64,000 nucleotides of DNA from contig JAVBPT010000005.1 of assembly GCA_031549455.1 (NCBI GenBank), positions 31,993 to 95,992 on the forward strand, in the 5' to 3' direction. The number at the start of each line of letters is the position of its first letter. Within the stretch, counting starts at the first letter, position 1. The notes under the pieces are model-generated. The model searched no databases. It saw only the letters and a list, made by a program, of their open reading frames with translations, and was not told the origin of the DNA. A program made the position numbers and the translations under genes. Shown piece by piece: positions 657 through 37,346 of this stretch. The stretch is from Eubacteriales bacterium (lineage in GTDB: Bacteria > Bacillota > Clostridia > Lachnospirales > JAKSVV01).

Positions 657-946
657 AGATGAAAATTGGAATTGCCTGCATTTTTTTATTGCTTTTTGTA
701 ACTTTCATTTATAAGTTTGCGTCTACTCCAAGAGAGGACGTAAAAATTCAGGTGTTCCATTTAAATACAGCGACCAAAGAGGACCTTATGAAGCTAAATG
801 GTGTTGGGAGTGCGATTGCAGATCGGATTCTGACATATAGGGAGACAGCTGGGTTTACAAAAAAAGAGGACATCAAGAAGGTAAAAGGCATTGGTGATAA
901 ATTATATGAAAAAATTAAAAAAAATATAGAAGTGGAGGCAAAATGA
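653..946 (+). CDS. ComEA-like helix-hairpin-helix DNA-binding protein with N-terminal membrane anchor
   Basis: It has a hydrophobic N-terminus and tandem HhH signatures (LMKLNGVGSAIADRIL, IKKVKGIGDKLYEKI). The ATGA overlap with the punA stop suggests coupling. Confidence 0.7.
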   Translation: MKMKIGIACIFLLLFVTFIYKFASTPREDVKIQVFHLNTATKEDLMKLNGVGSAIADRILTYRETAGFTKKEDIKKVKGIGDKLYEKIKKNIEVEAK

Positions 947-3985: not shown

Positions 3986-4014
3986 TTGACAATCATATAA
4001 TAATCGTATACTAT
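3986..4014 (+). promoter_or_regulatory. Sigma-A promoter candidate driving the 4021-4378 unit
   Basis: TTGACA (3986-3991), a 17-nt spacer, then TACTAT (4009-4014). Confidence 0.5.
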
Positions 4015-4020
4015 AGGTAC

Positions 4021-4378
4021 ATATTATTTGACATGATTCGACAAAAACCAACAAAAGGCTCAACGTCGAGTGATGACTGATGATATAATATTATTACAAG
4101 GAGCTGAAAAAGAGTGTACAGCGAAAGGATCAACACGCCGGCACACTACCTTCCGCCAGTCGCAAAATGGCAGGAACCTCAACCCAAGAGGATCAGTATG
4201 AGTAAGGAAGCCGCTATGAAGGATCAACACGTTAAAGCGCGTGGACGCGGTTCCAGAACAAAAGCAGGAACGCCTAGCGAGGCCAAATAATATTATATTC
4301 GATCTTTTCGTCACGGTGAAAAGGTCATAAATTAAAAAAAGAGGAGTGCGCTCTCTACTGAGGGCCCTCCCCTTTTTT
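4021..4378 (+). ncRNA. Candidate stand-alone structured sRNA with two tandem homologous domains, GGA-rich; family not recognised
   Basis: The unit has its own promoter and terminator and is visibly GC-richer than its flanks. A 13-bp perfect long-range inverted repeat pairs 4083-4095 with 4286-4298. Two 94-nt tandem units share AAGGATCAACACG (4125, 4219) and GCAGGAAC (4170, 4264). A hairpin lies at 4301-4326. There are 9 GGA motifs. The alternative reading is a 58-codon GTG ORF at 4114..4290. Confidence 0.45.
4334..4378. terminator. Bidirectional intrinsic terminator shared by the + RNA unit and the - small ORF
   Basis: An imperfect GC-rich stem (GGAGTGCGCTC / GAGGGCCCTCC) is flanked by an A7 run upstream and a T6 run downstream. 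Confidence 0.6.
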
Positions 4379-4381
4379 ATA

Positions 4382-4543
4382 CTAACAACAATGTCTGTGA
4401 TGACGTTTGTGATGTCTATGATGACGTCTGCAACAACAATCCCTTTCGCAGCAGTCATTGTCTCTTCTACAACAGTCGTCTTCTCTTCTAACCCACATGC
4501 ATCTGCATTCATCAAAATCGCATCCATTATTACATCTAAACAT
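4382..4543 (-). CDS. Unannotated 53-aa Cys/His/Arg-rich small protein (MFRCNNGCDFDECRCMWVRREDDCCRRDNDCCERDCCCRRHHRHHKRHHRHCC)
   Basis: A GAGGTGA RBS lies 5 nt upstream of the ATG at 4543. The TAG stop at 4382-4384 abuts the bidirectional terminator. It uses AGA-dominated Arg codons like its neighbours. It is shorter than the ORF-track cutoff. Confidence 0.5.
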   Translation of the reverse strand: MFRCNNGCDFDECRCMWVRREDDCCRRDNDCCERDCCCRRHHRHHKRHHRHCC

Positions 4544-4943
4544 ATAATCACCTCTATTCGTTTTCGAGCTAGCTTGGTGAAAACTACTAACTTCAAAAAT
4601 ACAGATCTTATTTATAATTTGATTTAAAAATTACCATATCTTATCTATTTATCGCTACTTTCAGTTTTTTAACTGATTAGGGTAAGAGTAGGTCACCTTG
4701 CCCCTCTAATATTTTATAATAAACTATATGCCCCAAAATAAAACTAGTTACAGCTTTTTGCAAATAAGATACAAACAGATCATAAAAGGTCAAAAAGTGT
4801 CGATCACTTCTTAAAATAATAATTGAAAATAATAGATATAAATGTTAGAATATTATTATAAAGGCAAAAAAATATCGAAACTTGCGACGAATCAGGGCTA
4901 AGCTTGCTAAAAACAAAGGGCGATATAGAGTATAGGAGTGAAA

Positions 4944-27953: not shown

Positions 27954-28148
27954 TTATCTATAGTATTCCGTGTGCTTCTCATTAATCGCATCAAAATCAT
28001 TAAATACATTTGTTTGATCTTCACCTATCTCAAACATAAATGAGTTCGGTTCAACCTCTTCACTAAAACCAATATTTTCCTTTGAAAATCGATACGCCTT
28101 ATTGTTTGGCGGTGTACTGTAACTACTATTTCCTGTAAAAGTTTTCAT
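27954..28148 (-). CDS. 64-aa hydrophilic small protein, unknown function
   Basis: A GGAGGTG RBS lies 6 nt before the ATG, and a hairpin (TATCCTAG-loop-CTAGGATA) follows the stop. Confidence 0.55.
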   Translation of the reverse strand: MKTFTGNSSYSTPPNNKAYRFSKENIGFSEEVEPNSFMFEIGEDQTNVFNDFDAINEKHTEYYR

Positions 28149-28321
28149 AACAACACCTCCAAATATTCTGCACGTTTGTGCAATTTTAGTATATGCAAAA
28201 TGTGTTCAAGTATTCACGATCCACATAGCAATTATTGGCAATAAAATTTTACAAAAAAGTACATACAAAAACAAAAAAATATGTTAAAATTATATTAGAT
28301 ATAGATATCGAAAGGAATAGT

Positions 28322-31300
28322 ATGAAAAAGATAATCTCGAGTTTATTATTGATTATATATAGTTTAACCATTCTGCTGACCTTTTATGTAAAAGATGTGG
28401 CGGCGGCAGGGGAACCATTTAGATGGGTGAGAGGATATGCACTGGATAACAACCTTTCAAGAACAACGCAGGTTGCAAACGACGAGGCTTTGCTAGAGTG
28501 GGATGTAACCGATGCGGGAGTGTATACGTTTTCTTTTTATACAGAAAATGAGAGAAAGAATGTGTTGACCTTTACCAAAACCCTAAATACACTGGATGTA
28601 AAATATCAAATTTTCAGATGGGATGGGACTGATTTTACCATCGATGTAACACAAAGTTACATTCAAGCAGAATATAAAGATTGGGATTTTGCGTCCCAAA
28701 CACTAATTACGCCAACCGTTGTGCCAACAGAGGTGGTCTTCCATATTGATTCTGTGGACTCACAAAGGGGACGAATTTTTAAAATCGAAAATCAATACAT
28801 CAAGTTCTTTTGGAGTGTCTCAGATTCAACAATAAATGTAAATTTTAAGGGACTTAAGAAAAACACAGTCCATCCTTTTGAGCTTAGCAGTCCAGGCGGA
28901 AGCACCCAAAAGATAAATGTATTAAAAAATCTGAGTTTTGATGTATCACCCACACACTACATCAACGTGTCTGGAAGTGTGGTCAACCTTGAGACGATTG
29001 ACCATGAGCTTCACCCGAATGAAAATGCGGGGCAAAAGCCGGGGATCAAGATCGAAATTTCAAGACCCATCGCCTATAATTCAGTGACAGCAAAATTTGA
29101 TGGTTATATCCCACTGATGGATGAGGCACTTATCAATCTATCCATCAACCTTCAGGAAAAGGTGGAAAATCTGGGCGTAAATCCTGCAAACTTTTCTATC
29201 TACAAAAAGCTTTCCGAGCTTACGAAGGCTTCTAGTGGGGATAAATATTACATTGATGTTGTGAAATCAAATGATGGTTTGGTGCCGTCAAACCAATATA
29301 CGGTTTGGTCAGCTTTAAAAGAGTCAACAATCTATGACCCAACCTCTCTGATTCTTTCCAACGTGGCCACAGAGAAGTATGACTTTGACGTGAGGTACAT
29401 TGTGACCAACGGAATAGGAGCAGGGTATACTTATCTTTCCTATGATATTGCCAGAAAAAGCATCACGGATACCTATGCAGTGATTGACACCTATAATGGG
29501 CCTGGAATTTACACCATCTATGTGGCGGAAGCAGCGATCACAAACCCTTCCTCTCCTCAGCTTGCCAAATGGGCTGAACAGAGGGTAGAAGAAGGGAGCG
29601 GAAAAATTTATATTCCACTCAGCGTGGTTCGAAATGAATTGATGCCCAATAAATATTACACATTTAAGGTAGAATATCGGTTAAATGATACCACGGCCAC
29701 AGTTGCATCTCAACTTCGAATCTACGATGCAAACGCTGACCATAAGGTAACGGTTTCTGTGCCCAAAATAGTCAGCATACAAGATTTAATTGTTATCCCG
29801 AAGGAGAACACGCTCAATGATGCTAAGGTTGCACGCTTTAACCTGGTTTTCGAGATGCCGGATAAAGTGATGGAGCTTCTTAGCACAAACAACAAACAAA
29901 TTTGGTATGAATTTTGTATGAATACATTGAATCGGAACCATACGGATAGTCAGGATCCAAGCAAAAATCAGAAATATCAGATTGCTCAATCCATTTATTT
30001 GAAGAAAAATGGAAGCCAGATTGAACTTAGAATGAATGATCCAAACAATCCAGAGTTTAAAATTGTAGATATTGATAAACCAATCAGCTGTGAAATCGTT
30101 CTAAAAGGGTTAAATCAAAACTGGATTTCCTTTAAGGTACCAGATTGGTCTGGAAGCGGAGGGGATTTAACCAAACCGGTTTCCGGAAGCGTTGGGAAAT
30201 ATATACCGGGGAATAGTACGCTTTATGAAAACGACTTTTTTAATCCCAACAAGGCAAAGATTCCGGCAAGTTATTTTGTTACTTTAAGAGCGCTTTATGA
30301 TGAGGATCTAATGAGTACGACCAATGAGATCACCATGAGCGAGTATGCCATTCCAATCAGTATTGCTCTTTCGGAAACGCAAGAGATACTGAAGGCACCA
30401 ATCGATGTAAAGAGCCCGAATAAAGGAATAGATTTTATTGAAACACGGTTTACAGATGTGGAGATCACAGAGTATAAAAGAAAGATGCTTGATTCAATTC
30501 AGGCGGATCTAGACAAGAAGGAATATGAAGTCTTTTTGAGTGCTTCTCAAGGGGATCTACAAAGGGTTTTATCAAATAGCCTGATTGTAAATAAGAAAAA
30601 CATCGAGCAAGCAGCAAGCAGCATTTACAATTTCAAACACCTTGGAAGCATTGGGAATTCGATTTCAATTCACCCTTCAAGCAGTAATGTTAGCCCGACG
30701 ATAACAGAGATTCGAAATGGAGCGGTGATCGCTTTTAGAATAAGTGCAGCGGATTTCATGCTCTTAAATTTGGATGCCAATCAAAACTACTATATGGCGG
30801 TTCGAACGAGTCTTGATGTGGTGGTGGACAACAACGAAGATGGTGTGAATGAAACCACTGTGAATCGATATTCTGAAATTACAAATATTTCCTCCGTTCG
30901 AACAGGGACTGAGATTGTCATACCAGGAGAAGAAGACAAAATCCCTGGGGCACCACAAAATTTTGGAATGGAAGAGGAAGCCACTGATCGATATATTCAT
31001 ATCAGATGGGAAGAGCCAGAGTATGATTCTAGTTTAAGACCAACTGAGATTTTGGGATATGAAATCATTCGGGTTGCGGACAATCGACTTGAGACCGCAG
31101 ATCGAAGCAACAAGTTAAGCATTGCGGATCTATATGCGATTGATCAATACAAAGACAAGGAGGCTTTTAGGATAATTGAGGGAGTGATGCAAAAATGGAA
31201 TCAGACCTCAAAAATTTGGGAAGTGATAGCAGGGGACCTGGATATTTATGAATATGTGCCGAATGGAAACTATATGAGATTAAAAGACTTTAACATCAAT

Positions 31301-33163
31301 ACCAACCGAATTTATTATTACTATATTCGAACGGTAAGATATGACACGGTACTAGGACATACAGAGATTGCAAAATCGATGTGGGCGGAGTTGACCTCCA
31401 CCACAAAACCCGTACAAGGTGTTAAAAATTTAAAACAAGTCTTTACAGGATATGCTTACAACGATTTATACGAAGTGGTTGTTTCATTTGAATCACCAAT
31501 CATCGATTCAAGTAGAATACCAAGCGAGTTTGAACATGTGATTGCGGTAAGGAGTCAAGATAGCGCGGTCTATTCAGAAAACGGATATAAAGTGACACTA
31601 CTTGCTGTTAAGGATGAAGGAAAATCAGACTACAGAACCTATGTGTATAAGATTGGTGGATTATTATCTGGGAAGAAATATTATGTGAAAGCGGCAATAC
31701 TGGATAAGACCACAACAGAAGAGGGCAATGTTTATGCCAAATCGGCGTATACACCATATATTGAGCTCAGGACCACCTTTTCACAAGAGGATTATGATAA
31801 AGAAAACAAGTACGCCGATTATTCAAGATATTATGATACCAAGACATTGGAACTCATTAACGTACCCGCTTTTGTGGTTGAGGATAGCGCCTCTAGCTAT
31901 GAGCTAAAGTATATCGAGGAGAAGTTTACAGGACTCATCAATGCAACTAAAACCAGCTATTTTGATCTGCCGGTTAAGAAGGATGTGGCGAGTCTCACCT
32001 ATTTTATTTCTCAGAAAAATATACAAGACCTTCAGAATAAAAAAATGTCATTAAGGATTGTGCGGGATAACCTAACCCTCATCATTCCATACGAGTGGCT
32101 GGATTCTGAGTTAACAGAAGCATGGGTAAATATGAAAAAGTCTATGAAAGATCGAAATAAAGGGGTGAGTGATTTTTATGTTAGACTAAGCCTTACTTTC
32201 AATGATAAAGCCACCACCATTAATGGTGCCAAGAAATTGGGGGCGGAAGTTGAAACGCAAATCGAACTGATCGAACAAAATCGTTATAACGTCGAAATTG
32301 ATTATATGATTGAGGAACGATTAAAGGATAAGATTAAATCCGAAAAATCAACCTTCCTTTATGAACTGGACAGACAGTTAAAAGGAGAGATCAACGACAA
32401 TCGATTCTTAGAAATAATGGATGATACAATGGAAGATTTGGCGGAAAAGTTACAAATCATTGTCGCCAAAGAATTGCCAAAGTATGAAGAGGATTCGGAG
32501 AGCGTGGTGGAGACGTATAAACCGATTAACATGAAATATACCGGAGAAGCCACTGCTAATATTGTGGCCTACAACACGAAAACAAGAAGCTGGTATACCA
32601 TTCAACAAGAAAAATCCATGGGAAATATCAATGGGTATATGAGCAAATTGGAACGCTTTGCACTCACAAGTGTAAACGATTTTACCCTTATTTATGGAAC
32701 AGAGGAGGAGAAGGCTGCTGCTGAGGTAAAGGCAAAATATAACCTGGATGCGGTACTTCGAGCCAATGGGGTTTATGACCTGAGTGGGACGGTGACACAA
32801 AAATTGATGAAGGAGATCGTGTATGTGATTATTGCAAAAAGGGCAAGTAGTATCAATGAGGAAATCAATCTGAGAAAGCAGATTGATGCACGGTTTAGCT
32901 TCCTGAATCAAACGTTAACAAATCAGGAGATCATCTATACCATTATGCAAACTTACAATATGTTCACTAGCATTGACATCAATAACCTCATCATCAAGGA
33001 TCAGAGTGTGATTGTGGGAATAACGGGTATTCAAAACTACTATAAACAAAGCATTTTGGCTTCGGTCGAGTTGGGAATGCTTACAAAGAATGACATCAAG
33101 GAGCCCAATAAACAACTTAGTGTGGGTACAACGTTAAGACTCATAAGAGATATCATAAAATAG
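28322..33163 (+). CDS. Giant (~1613 aa) secreted beta-rich protein with fibronectin-III-like modules; no canonical anchor recognised
   Basis: It has a signal peptide (MKKIISSLLLIIYSLTILLTFYVKDVAAA). FN3-like segments occur (PGAPQNF...RWEEPEYDS...ILGYEIIRV...YYYYIRTV and VQGVKNLK...YYVKAAILD). The track's TTG start at 28235 is unlikely. Confidence 0.7.
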   Translation: MKKIISSLLLIIYSLTILLTFYVKDVAAAGEPFRWVRGYALDNNLSRTTQVANDEALLEWDVTDAGVYTFSFYTENERKNVLTFTKTLNTLDVKYQIFRWDGTDFTIDVTQSYIQAEYKDWDFASQTLITPTVVPTEVVFHIDSVDSQRGRIFKIENQYIKFFWSVSDSTINVNFKGLKKNTVHPFELSSPGGSTQKINVLKNLSFDVSPTHYINVSGSVVNLETIDHELHPNENAGQKPGIKIEISRPIAYNSVTAKFDGYIPLMDEALINLSINLQEKVENLGVNPANFSIYKKLSELTKASSGDKYYIDVVKSNDGLVPSNQYTVWSALKESTIYDPTSLILSNVATEKYDFDVRYIVTNGIGAGYTYLSYDIARKSITDTYAVIDTYNGPGIYTIYVAEAAITNPSSPQLAKWAEQRVEEGSGKIYIPLSVVRNELMPNKYYTFKVEYRLNDTTATVASQLRIYDANADHKVTVSVPKIVSIQDLIVIPKENTLNDAKVARFNLVFEMPDKVMELLSTNNKQIWYEFCMNTLNRNHTDSQDPSKNQKYQIAQSIYLKKNGSQIELRMNDPNNPEFKIVDIDKPISCEIVLKGLNQNWISFKVPDWSGSGGDLTKPVSGSVGKYIPGNSTLYENDFFNPNKAKIPASYFVTLRALYDEDLMSTTNEITMSEYAIPISIALSETQEILKAPIDVKSPNKGIDFIETRFTDVEITEYKRKMLDSIQADLDKKEYEVFLSASQGDLQRVLSNSLIVNKKNIEQAASSIYNFKHLGSIGNSISIHPSSSNVSPTITEIRNGAVIAFRISAADFMLLNLDANQNYYMAVRTSLDVVVDNNEDGVNETTVNRYSEITNISSVRTGTEIVIPGEEDKIPGAPQNFGMEEEATDRYIHIRWEEPEYDSSLRPTEILGYEIIRVADNRLETADRSNKLSIADLYAIDQYKDKEAFRIIEGVMQKWNQTSKIWEVIAGDLDIYEYVPNGNYMRLKDFNINTNRIYYYYIRTVRYDTVLGHTEIAKSMWAELTSTTKPVQGVKNLKQVFTGYAYNDLYEVVVSFESPIIDSSRIPSEFEHVIAVRSQDSAVYSENGYKVTLLAVKDEGKSDYRTYVYKIGGLLSGKKYYVKAAILDKTTTEEGNVYAKSAYTPYIELRTTFSQEDYDKENKYADYSRYYDTKTLELINVPAFVVEDSASSYELKYIEEKFTGLINATKTSYFDLPVKKDVASLTYFISQKNIQDLQNKKMSLRIVRDNLTLIIPYEWLDSELTEAWVNMKKSMKDRNKGVSDFYVRLSLTFNDKATTINGAKKLGAEVETQIELIEQNRYNVEIDYMIEERLKDKIKSEKSTFLYELDRQLKGEINDNRFLEIMDDTMEDLAEKLQIIVAKELPKYEEDSESVVETYKPINMKYTGEATANIVAYNTKTRSWYTIQQEKSMGNINGYMSKLERFALTSVNDFTLIYGTEEEKAAAEVKAKYNLDAVLRANGVYDLSGTVTQKLMKEIVYVIIAKRASSINEEINLRKQIDARFSFLNQTLTNQEIIYTIMQTYNMFTSIDINNLIIKDQSVIVGITGIQNYYKQSILASVELGMLTKNDIKEPNKQLSVGTTLRLIRDIIK

Positions 33164-35552: not shown

Positions 35553-35657
35553 TTATTCATTGTCATCTTCATCGTCGATGTCTTCGTCATCATCACAACA
35601 ACCACATCCGCAATCATCGTCATCGTCTATGTTTTCTTTTTTTTCGTCTTCGTTCAT
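35553..35657 (-). CDS. Unannotated 34-aa hyper-acidic CGCGCC peptide (MNEDEKKENIDDDDDCGCGCCDDDEDIDDEDDNE)
   Basis: An AGGAGGTG RBS lies 5 nt before the ATG at 35657. The start is only 15 nt after the argS stop, and the TAA at 35553-35555 comes just before the shared terminator. Confidence 0.55.
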   Translation of the reverse strand: MNEDEKKENIDDDDDCGCGCCDDDEDIDDEDDNE

Positions 35658-35672
35658 TCTTTCACCTCCTCT

Positions 35673-37346
35673 CTACATTTCTTCTGGTGCTTGCATACAG
35701 ATCAGACTTAGGCCCTCTTTTAAGATTTTCTGGGTTGCTTTTACAAGTTGTATTCTGGTGTTTTGAACCAAGTCATCCTCTACAAGAATAGCATACTCAT
35801 TGTAGAATTTATTAAAATATTGAGCCAAATCGATCAAATATCTTGCGACAAACGACGGCTCGAAACGAGTTGCTGCATTTATAACGATTTCATTGAACTT
35901 AGATAGGTGTTTAATCAGTTCAAAGGAGGTTTCATCTTTTAATAGATCATAATCCACTTTGCCAGTATCATTTGCCTTTCGAATAAGGCTACAGAGTCGG
36001 GCATGGGTGTACTGAAGGTAAGGCCCTGTCTCACCATCAAACCGGAGCGCCTCCTCCCACTTAAACACAACGTCCTTATTGCTACTATTAAATAAATTAT
36101 GAAACACAAGTGCACCCACGCCCACCATTTTGGCGATCTCTTCTTTATTTGGTGCATTTGGATTCTTTTCGTCGATAATCGTCTCTACCTTTTTGGTTGC
36201 CTCTTTGATGGCATCCTCTAACTTAATGATATTCCCGGTTCTAGTTGAGAGGTTTCCGCCTTCCAGTCGGACCATCCCATGGGCGATATGTGCAAGGTCA
36301 GAAGCCCAAGAATAGCCCATTTTTTCGATCACTTTAAACCATTGTGCAAAGTGCAATTTTTGTTCGGAACCTGTGATATAAATGCACTTATCAAAGTCAA
36401 AGGTTTCTTTTCGGTAGATCGCAGCGGCGATGTCTCTTGTCATATATAAAGTGGCTCCATCACTGCGGACGATAATGGCAGGAGCCATTTCCTCTAGTTC
36501 TACAATCTTAGCACCCTGACTCTCAACAAGTAGGTTTTTGCTTTCAAGTTCAGAGACCACGTGATCCACCTTATCTAGGTAAAAGCTTTCGCCGGTGATA
36601 TAATCAAAATGAAGATTCAACTCAGCGGATACCCTATCAAAATATTTTATACTGATCTCCTTAAAATAATTCCATATTTTAATCGCTTCTGGATCCCCTT
36701 TTTCAATTTTATAGGACCAGCTTCTTCCGTCATCTTCAAGGGAGGGGCTTTTCTCCGCTTCTTCATGAAATTTAACATAAAGGTCTACTAATTCATAGAT
36801 GCCCCGTTCCTCAATTCTTGCCTCATCGCCCCAAAGCTTGTAGGCCACAATCAGTTTCCCAAATTGGGTACCCATGTCGCCGAGGTGATTAATGCCAATC
36901 GGCTTGTAGCCAACATATTCAAAGATTCGGTAAAGAGAATCGCCCGTTACGGCGTTCTTAAGATGTCCAATGTGAAAAGGCTTTGCGATGTTTAAAGAAG
37001 CGTAGTCAATCACGATATTTTTTCCCTGACCAATGTTGGGTTTTTCTGCTTTTTGAATGCCATCTAAGGTCTTTTCAATAAAATATTGTTTATTCACAAA
37101 GAAGTTCAGGTATCCACCCACCACTTCGGTTCGTTCAATGAGATCATTTTTGATGATTTCTTTCAATTCCTCTGCAATCAGAGCGGGAGACTTTTTGCGT
37201 AACTTTGCCAGTGTAAAACATGGGAACGCAAAGTCCCCAAGCTTGGGGTTGGGAGGAATTTCAATCTGTCTTTCCATCTCGCCCGTAGCCACATCTTGTA
37301 TAAACTCAGACAGCATGTCTGTCAGCTCTTTTTTGTCCATTTCCAC
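35673..37346 (-). CDS. argS: Arginine--tRNA ligase
   Basis: It has the class I HIGH motif (PFHIGHLKN) and the ArgRS-typical N- and C-terminal domains, ending ...QAPEEM. Confidence 0.9.
   Translation of the reverse strand: MEMDKKELTDMLSEFIQDVATGEMERQIEIPPNPKLGDFAFPCFTLAKLRKKSPALIAEELKEIIKNDLIERTEVVGGYLNFFVNKQYFIEKTLDGIQKAEKPNIGQGKNIVIDYASLNIAKPFHIGHLKNAVTGDSLYRIFEYVGYKPIGINHLGDMGTQFGKLIVAYKLWGDEARIEERGIYELVDLYVKFHEEAEKSPSLEDDGRSWSYKIEKGDPEAIKIWNYFKEISIKYFDRVSAELNLHFDYITGESFYLDKVDHVVSELESKNLLVESQGAKIVELEEMAPAIIVRSDGATLYMTRDIAAAIYRKETFDFDKCIYITGSEQKLHFAQWFKVIEKMGYSWASDLAHIAHGMVRLEGGNLSTRTGNIIKLEDAIKEATKKVETIIDEKNPNAPNKEEIAKMVGVGALVFHNLFNSSNKDVVFKWEEALRFDGETGPYLQYTHARLCSLIRKANDTGKVDYDLLKDETSFELIKHLSKFNEIVINAATRFEPSFVARYLIDLAQYFNKFYNEYAILVEDDLVQNTRIQLVKATQKILKEGLSLICMQAPEEM

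Follow-up and report, generated by a model that had tools for sequence, protein, structure and literature searches.

A Cys/His/Arg-rich 53-codon open reading frame between a flgM-family gene and lgt in a Eubacteriales bacterium: a probable lineage-restricted small gene with a possible metal-binding product

The DNA analysed was a stretch of 64,000 nucleotides from a Eubacteriales bacterium (hereafter the window). Between a flgM-family gene and lgt, it contains an otherwise unexplained gap of 1,010 nt, in which a Cys-rich open reading frame (ORF) lies on the minus strand, convergent with a unit on the plus strand (Table 1). The neighbouring genes encode an ECF sigma factor, a zf-HC2/DUF4349 anti-sigma factor, and SIMPL, FlgM, Lgt, Spo0E-like, FolD, DUF975 and M18 peptidase proteins, followed by housekeeping genes. 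No metal transporter, metalloregulator or maturation gene was present within about 20 kb, and no cotH-type kinase or coat genes were found over the same distance. The annotated parts of the window contained no urease, hydrogenase or nickel genes. There was no evidence of a tRNA or tmRNA at the locus. A search of both strands of the locus against Rfam returned nothing, even at E<=10, and no Rfam family reached the gathering threshold over the whole 64-kb window. The locus was identical in two public assemblies (the NCBI contig and Logan SRR23967709), with no polymorphism between them.

Table 1. Positions of the Cys-rich ORF, its expression signals and the convergent unit, numbered from the first letter of the window.
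Feature	Positions	Strand	Description
Cys-rich ORF	4382..4543	-	53 codons + TAG; gene-like codon choice; 3-nt and 21-nt periodicity
In-frame 21-nt (7-codon) tandem duplication	4391..4430	-	89% identical; encodes R-H-H-R-H / K-R-H-H-R-H of the His/Arg tail
Shine-Dalgarno GAGGTGAT	4547..4554	-	8-nt perfect complement to the Firmicute 16S 3' end
Bidirectional intrinsic terminator	4335..4378	both	A-run, G+C stem, T-run; common to the convergent + unit
Convergent unit	3986..4378	+	Sigma-70-like promoter TTGACA-17-TACTAT; ~355-nt G+C-rich transcript; common terminator
Best sigma-70-like candidate for the ORF unit	4766..4793	-	TTGACC-16-TATCTT, 9/12; weak; leader ~215 nt
TGTAAC-N16-CATATAGT	4723..4752	-	Resembles sigmaK-type (AC-N16-CATA---T) and ECF-type -35; a lead only

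The translation of the ORF is MFRCNNGCDFDECRCMWVRREDDCCRRDNDCCERDCCCRRHHRHHKRHHRHCC, followed by a TAG stop. The initial annotation had described a minus-strand ORF of 53 codons with 13 Cys, 7 His and 12 Arg, and both the translation and the counts were reproduced here; 7 Asp and 3 Glu are also present among the 53 residues. The peptide contains 22.6% Arg, 13.2% His and 24.5% Cys, the last compared with 0.92% in the proteins of the window, and eight amino acids (Ala, Ile, Leu, Pro, Gln, Ser, Thr and Tyr) are missing from it. The ORF has the highest Cys density among all of the six-frame stop-to-stop segments of the 64-kb window, and no comparably Cys-dense segment was found in 1.4 Mb of loci from related organisms. 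The calculated mass, initiator Met included, is 6,755.6 Da, or 6.76 kDa, with a GRAVY of -1.53 and a pI of 8.3. The most hydrophobic 15-aa Kyte-Doolittle window scores -0.29, and there is no hydrophobic stretch or membrane segment.

The N-terminal two-thirds of the peptide are acidic and contain Cys, residues 1-38 being net acidic (+7/-10), and the tail is basic (RRHHRHHKRHHRHCC), the last 15 residues carrying a charge of +6 and all 7 His. The Cys motifs comprise CxxxC, CxC, three CC and one CCC, with basic residues adjoining Cys. The aromatic residues, two Phe and one Trp, all lie in the N-terminal third, and none is present in residues 18-53. The residues can be laid out in heptads as DDCCRRD / NDCCERD / CCCRRHH / RHHKRHH / RHCC. 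In the tail, a 19-nt stretch is duplicated in tandem with a 21-nt period and 89% identity. Single-sequence AF2 analysis predicted no fold (pLDDT 48.7).

The Shine-Dalgarno (SD) sequence of the ORF has an optimal spacing: it ends 3 nt before the ATG at 4543, and its AGAGG core ends 7 nt before the ATG. A GAGGTGA element 5 nt before the ATG had been reported earlier; the element is present (4548-4554, minus strand), but the spacer is 4 nt (TTAT) rather than 5. The window contains 14 copies of GAGGTGA. In total, 25 of its starts combine an anti-SD match of at least 7 nt with an ORF of at least 30 codons. At an SD of at least 8 nt and an ORF of at least 50 codons (both strands, 128 kb), the Cys-rich ORF was the sole non-genic entry, the remaining entries being true gene starts or in-frame internal starts of real genes. 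A short UCACC sequence (4573-4577, minus strand), about 20 nt upstream, can pair with GGUGA of the SD (4548-4552); this small hairpin could be an SD-sequestering structure, at a z of -1.6, which is not significant.

At the other end of the ORF, 3 unpaired nt separate the TAG stop (4384-4382) from a 44-nt hairpin (4378-4335). The hairpin has a folding energy of -21.0 kcal/mol on the minus strand (z -3.3) and -21.6 on the plus strand (z -4.8), with a U-tract on each strand, which bears out the earlier placement of the stop 3 nt before a bidirectional terminator. No other minus-strand ORF of at least 150 aa is present upstream until about 8.9 kb, and the large ORFs are on the plus strand for about 18 kb downstream on that strand. 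The minus-strand U-tract therefore has no other obvious client. The initial reading of canonical translation and termination signals was thus upheld, namely an 8-nt SD, an ATG, and a stop 3 nt before a terminator. On these signals, the ORF is probably transcribed and translated.

No strong promoter was found for the minus-strand unit, the only candidate of the sigma-70 type being a 9/12 match about 220 nt upstream. A second candidate, AC-N16-CATATAGT (4748-4723, minus strand), lies about 180 nt upstream of the ORF; the relaxed sigmaK-like pattern is no commoner in the window than chance predicts, with 8 found and 7.8 expected. A TGTAAC-N17-CGTC sequence (697-728, plus strand) has the shape of a classical ECF-type promoter and lies upstream of the ECF sigma/anti-sigma operon, within a coding-looking stretch. 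The TGTAAC -35 hexamer is common to the regions upstream of this operon (N17-CGTC) and of the Cys-rich ORF (N16-CATA), which could be coincidence. Two direct repeats, CAGATCTTATTTAT (4602-4615) and CATATCTTATCTAT (4635-4648), are spaced 33 nt apart and lie 60-105 nt before the ATG of the ORF; they could represent a regulator binding site or could have arisen by chance. No metalloregulator operator was recognisable near the ORF. The GGG...CCCC palindrome at 4676-4712 folds no better than shuffled sequences and is of the wrong polarity for a CsoR-type site.

The convergent plus-strand unit has a G+C content of up to 53%, compared with 39% for the window, and a fold z of -3.9. It contains two tandem copies of a two-block motif, 94 nt apart, in which AAGGATCAACACG is followed by about 32 nt with a hairpin and then by GCAGGAAC. 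The public gene calls place a singleton 58-aa protein (P0121) in this unit. A spacing of 94 nt is not divisible by 3 and puts the repeated blocks into different reading frames of the 58-aa ORF, which argues for an element that acts at the level of RNA or DNA and not as protein. The unit gave no Rfam family match and is more likely a novel structured RNA.

No homologue of the Cys-rich peptide was identified. There were no matches to Pfam or NCBIfam at E<=10, nothing in PADLOC or PHROGs, nothing in a word index of 5.8 billion proteins, and 0 matches in an exhaustive phmmer search of 1.84 billion representatives. The PDB gave one match only, which was a His-tag artefact. Similarly, tblastn against plasmids and phages returned nothing, as did pattern scans of metagenome and viral sequence, and no profile match was found to the bacterial metallothionein families (Pfam Metallothio_Pro and others). 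The absence of homologues is of limited weight, since a 53-aa low-complexity query finds close relatives only, and the genome has none. The Lgt of the source genome is a singleton, and the next best protein among 5.8 billion is 55% identical. With no relative of Lgt above 55% identity, the source lineage is, by sequence comparison, very sparsely sampled. Scans anchored on Lgt, over genome and metagenome contigs, found relatives of no more than 48% identity. In the 55% Lgt relative (contig L161), the lgt-spo0E arrangement was kept, but the gene upstream encodes a secreted protein of another kind, and there was no Cys-rich ORF. The neighbours at the P0005 loci were also different.

The ORF was described as unannotated in the initial annotation, and this was confirmed. 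The exact protein is absent from a collection of 15 billion proteins, in which Lgt and the 58-aa ORF of the same contig are present, and the public gene calls omit the Cys-rich ORF yet include both of these neighbours.

The synonymous codon score of the ORF was 12.7, compared with 8.4+/-4.7 for a null drawn from the codon usage of the window's genes and 2.0+/-5.1 for a null drawn from base composition (P=0.016 against composition). AGA is used for 9 of the 12 Arg, CAT is used over CAC, and GAA and AAT are used exclusively. The DNA of the ORF shows strong periodicity, with z=3.45 at 3 nt and z=5.5 at 21 nt; lags of 6, 15 and 18 were also clearly raised, lag 12 was raised weakly (z 1.4) and lag 9 was not raised. 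No lag other than multiples of 3 was raised. A codon-frame model, for which 40 ORFs of the window served as the training set, gave a score of -24.9 in the frame of the ORF, which resembles a wrong frame (wrong frames -33+/-15), and a score of +23.8 in the -1 shifted frame, which resembles a gene (real genes 18+/-8 per 53 codons). Codon position 2 is a purine in 48 of the 53 codons, and a gene-like score of the shifted frame would be expected from this, since a purine at this position of the 53-aa frame mimics the universal purine-first codon bias. In the DDCCRRD/NDCCERD pair, five of the eight differences fall at third positions (P=0.09). Over the whole ORF, the lag-21 mismatches showed no third-position enrichment, and the internal repeats thus carry no selection signal.

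The main alternative to a gene is that the ORF is not translated. In that case, its frame would be open by chance, within degenerate sequence that is periodic at 3 and 21 nt, or the stretch would belong to a non-coding RNA or 3' region of the minus strand; the SD-like site would be a coincidence. We regard this as a serious possibility, at clearly less than even chances. It would fit the lack of homologues in any of the collections searched, the omission of the ORF by gene callers, the extreme composition with its eight missing amino acids, the wrong-frame score from the codon-frame model, the lack of a convincing promoter, and a repeat divergence without codon-position bias; composition alone leaves three frames open at this position. 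Against this, an 8-nt SD, an ATG, 53 codons and a stop 3 nt before a U-tract terminator are unlikely to coincide, and no wrong-frame ORF in the window appeared at the same thresholds. The AGA-biased codon choice is gene-like at the P value given above, and the periodicity is confined to multiples of 3. The alternative is further weakened by the minus-strand region, which folds no better than shuffled sequences (z -1.25), and by the lack of an Rfam match. On balance, we consider that the minus-strand ORF at 4382..4543 is probably a real, translated and lineage-restricted gene.

Other small ORFs were noted elsewhere in the window. A second ORF with a Cys cluster, of 34 aa (MNEDEKKENIDDDDDCGCGCCDDDEDIDDEDDNE; 35553-35657, minus strand), lies directly downstream of argS (35673-37346), has a 9-nt SD (AGGAGGTGA) 4 nt upstream, and is followed by a hairpin and a T-run. 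Its codon score was gene-like (+21.7), and it had no Pfam, NCBIfam, PADLOC or PHROG match. A 64-aa ORF (MKTFTGNSSYSTPPNNKAYRF...; 27954-28148, minus strand) has a 7-nt SD (GGAGGTG) 5 nt upstream and no family match. It lies just upstream of, and divergent from, a 1,642-aa ORF (28235-33163, plus strand), which has no significant Pfam domain and only a sub-threshold match to DUF5008.

As to function, our tentative reading of the Cys-rich ORF is that it may encode a lineage-restricted, disordered metal-binding peptide of a metallothionein- or Hpn-like kind, built by in-frame heptad duplication, a role suggested by composition only. The ORF would be transcribed from the intergenic region that is divergent from lgt, translated from the strong SD and ATG, and ended at the bidirectional hairpin. 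In-frame duplication, in units of 3 nt and 21 nt, seems to be the way in which the coding sequence grew. The product would be a very hydrophilic peptide of 6.8 kDa without a stable fold of its own, in which 13 thiolates (in CxxxC, CxC, three CC and one CCC) and 7 imidazoles could coordinate soft or borderline metals (Zn, Cu(I), Ni, Co or Cd) in clusters. The reducing cytoplasm of an anaerobe would leave the thiols of the peptide free for metal, and the flanking Arg may balance the negative charge on metal-thiolate clusters, a part played by Lys in metallothioneins. Its most likely role would be that of a metal buffer, store or chaperone, like metallothioneins, Hpn and the His/Cys-rich nickel-binding tails. 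We infer the binding of metal from these features, and the choice among the metals named is conjectural. The low pLDDT from AF2 fits an apo-metallothionein-like peptide, since such peptides are expected to be foldless. The gene context neither supports nor contradicts a metal role. The metal-binding and spore-coat roles put forward as speculation in the initial annotation were neither borne out nor refuted.

By definition, metallothioneins sequester metal, are rich in Cys and have a low molecular weight (PMC7387436). Relative to the descriptive limits of a mass below 10 kDa and about 15-30% Cys in CC/CxC/CxxC motifs, the peptide has 6.76 kDa (53 aa) and 24.5% Cys (in CC, CCC, CxC and CxxxC). 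It resembles the bacterial metallothioneins (SmtA/BmtA, the Pseudomonas metallothioneins and MymT) in being small, with about 25% Cys in CC/CxC/CxxxC motifs, some His, basic residues by the Cys and no predicted metal-free fold. MymT is also 53 aa in length. Unlike these proteins, the peptide has no sequence similarity to any metallothionein family, is far richer in Arg and Asp, and carries a His/Arg tail; its three aromatics and 23% Arg appear atypical for classical metallothioneins, which have few or no aromatic residues. Furthermore, its host is an anaerobic Firmicute, and no SmtB/ArsR-type regulator is adjacent. To our knowledge, no metallothionein has been characterised in anaerobic Firmicutes or Clostridia.

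A second group for comparison comprises Hpn and Hpn-2 of Helicobacter and the His/Cys-rich nickel-binding tails of HspA, SlyD, CooJ and HypB. His makes up about half of the residues of Hpn. In the present peptide, His is only 13%, Cys and Arg dominate, and there is neither homology to Hpn nor any nickel-related neighbour, so that the presence of -CC- does not suffice to place it in the Hpn-like class. The peptide resembles the group in being short, low in complexity and lineage-restricted, with His runs and -CC- pairs, and, like hpn, the ORF would be a young gene of a narrow clade. In Hpn, the -CC- pairs have been proposed as metal ligands (PMC4671568).

The arrangement of the locus also invites comparison with antisense-acting riboswitch loci (S-box, ubiG-mccBA, C. 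acetobutylicum). In C. acetobutylicum, an S-box downstream of ubiG-mccBA acts antisense (PMC2566862; reviewed in PMC9943018). Similarly, the plus-strand RNA is promoter-driven, structured and convergent, with its terminator directly downstream of the ORF, and read-through of this terminator would give an antisense RNA over the whole ORF. In contrast to those loci, the RNA has no riboswitch or Rfam match, no antiterminator alternative was identified, and read-through is hypothetical. By this analogy, the locus could hold a recently born, repeat-built gene for a metallothionein-like, metal-buffering peptide, the first from an anaerobic Firmicute, with its expression set by ligand-dependent read-through of the terminator of the plus-strand RNA. 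We consider this full scenario a long shot.

Among the other functions considered for a translated product, a component of the spore surface (coat or exosporium), made by the mother cell at a late stage and cross-linked through disulfides once that cell has lysed, is the best placed, and we judge it unlikely. In this version, the His/Arg tail and heptads would possibly be CotG-like and the Cys would serve as in CdeC/CdeM or CotY/CotZ. CotG-like proteins share composition and not sequence. The peptide has in common with these proteins its Cys-rich, low-complexity architecture, short in-frame tandem repeats and basic residues. The AC-N16-CATATAGT match upstream of the ORF resembles a sigmaK promoter, and the nearby Spo0E-like gene suggests a sporulating lineage. 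However, the promoter-like match is of a kind found at chance frequency, and no significant sigmaK/sigmaE promoter was identified. The peptide has no homology to the coat and exosporium families (CdeC/CdeM/CotY/CotZ/CotG) and no coat or cotH-type neighbours over the distance stated above, it lacks Ser/Lys phosphorylation repeats, and it is much smaller than the known Cys-rich coat proteins. In favour of this version, exosporium proteins rich in Cys have an essential role in C. difficile (PMC6101409); CotG-like proteins are described elsewhere (PMC7821199).

A protamine-like product, whose Arg/His tail would bind nucleic-acid phosphate or another polyanion while Zn- or disulfide-bridged Cys condense or cross-link it, appears improbable. 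The composition of the peptide (23% Arg, 25% Cys and 13% His in about 50 aa) resembles that of mammalian protamines P1/P2, and the charge and the His of the last 15 residues would suit this role. The net acidic charge of residues 1-38 is unlike protamines, and there is no homology and no DNA-linked context.

Two long ORFs overlap the Cys-rich ORF, one of 178 aa (4060..4596, minus strand) and one of 93 aa (4346..4627, plus strand). That one of these is the true coding frame is scarcely credible. The one observation in its favour is that the -1 shifted minus frame scores like a gene; within the 178-aa ORF, this score is confined to about 4566-4386 and is <=0 elsewhere. None of the possible starts of the 178-aa ORF has an SD; this ORF also continues through the terminator and lies antisense to the G+C-rich plus-strand unit, and the 93-aa ORF begins within the terminator stem. 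Neither has a Pfam, NCBIfam or database homologue, and no start variant of either is present in the public gene calls. The initial annotation had dismissed both as artefacts, and our results agree: there is no SD and no family or homologue, and the coding-like score falls only within the extent of the 53-aa ORF. These observations support the view that the long overlapping ORFs are by-products of the composition of the Cys-rich ORF.

The analogy with type I toxin-antitoxin loci drawn in the first reading, with the ORF as toxin and the convergent RNA as its antitoxin, was not supported and deserves almost no weight, as only the layout of a convergent small ORF and a putative sRNA with a common terminator speaks for it, while the peptide is very hydrophilic and has no membrane segment (GRAVY -1.53, best 15-aa window -0.29), there is no PADLOC or family match, and the overlap of the two units is limited to the ~44-nt hairpin (4335-4378), with the ORF starting at 4382, beyond the plus-strand terminator.

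Two further candidates were rejected. A RiPP precursor (SCIFF/ranthipeptide or lanthipeptide) was discounted, as no maturase (radical SAM, LanM) or transporter is adjacent and there is no NCBIfam match. An amino-acid-sensing leader peptide was discounted, as the ORF is followed directly by the terminator and then by the convergent plus-strand units, with no regulated downstream gene.

Characterised bacterial metallothionein-like proteins are known from few groups, namely cyanobacteria, pseudomonads and mycobacteria, and nickel, cobalt and zinc enzymes are central to clostridial anaerobic metabolism. Should the ORF prove to be untranslated, the locus would be a caution that an SD and a terminator around a periodic, low-complexity stretch can mimic a gene. 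If the Cys-rich ORF is a real gene, it would illustrate how small proteins of extreme composition escape gene callers and would be a clear case of a small gene growing from short in-frame repeats, and its product would be a sequence-unrelated addition to the small Cys/His-rich metal-binding peptides.
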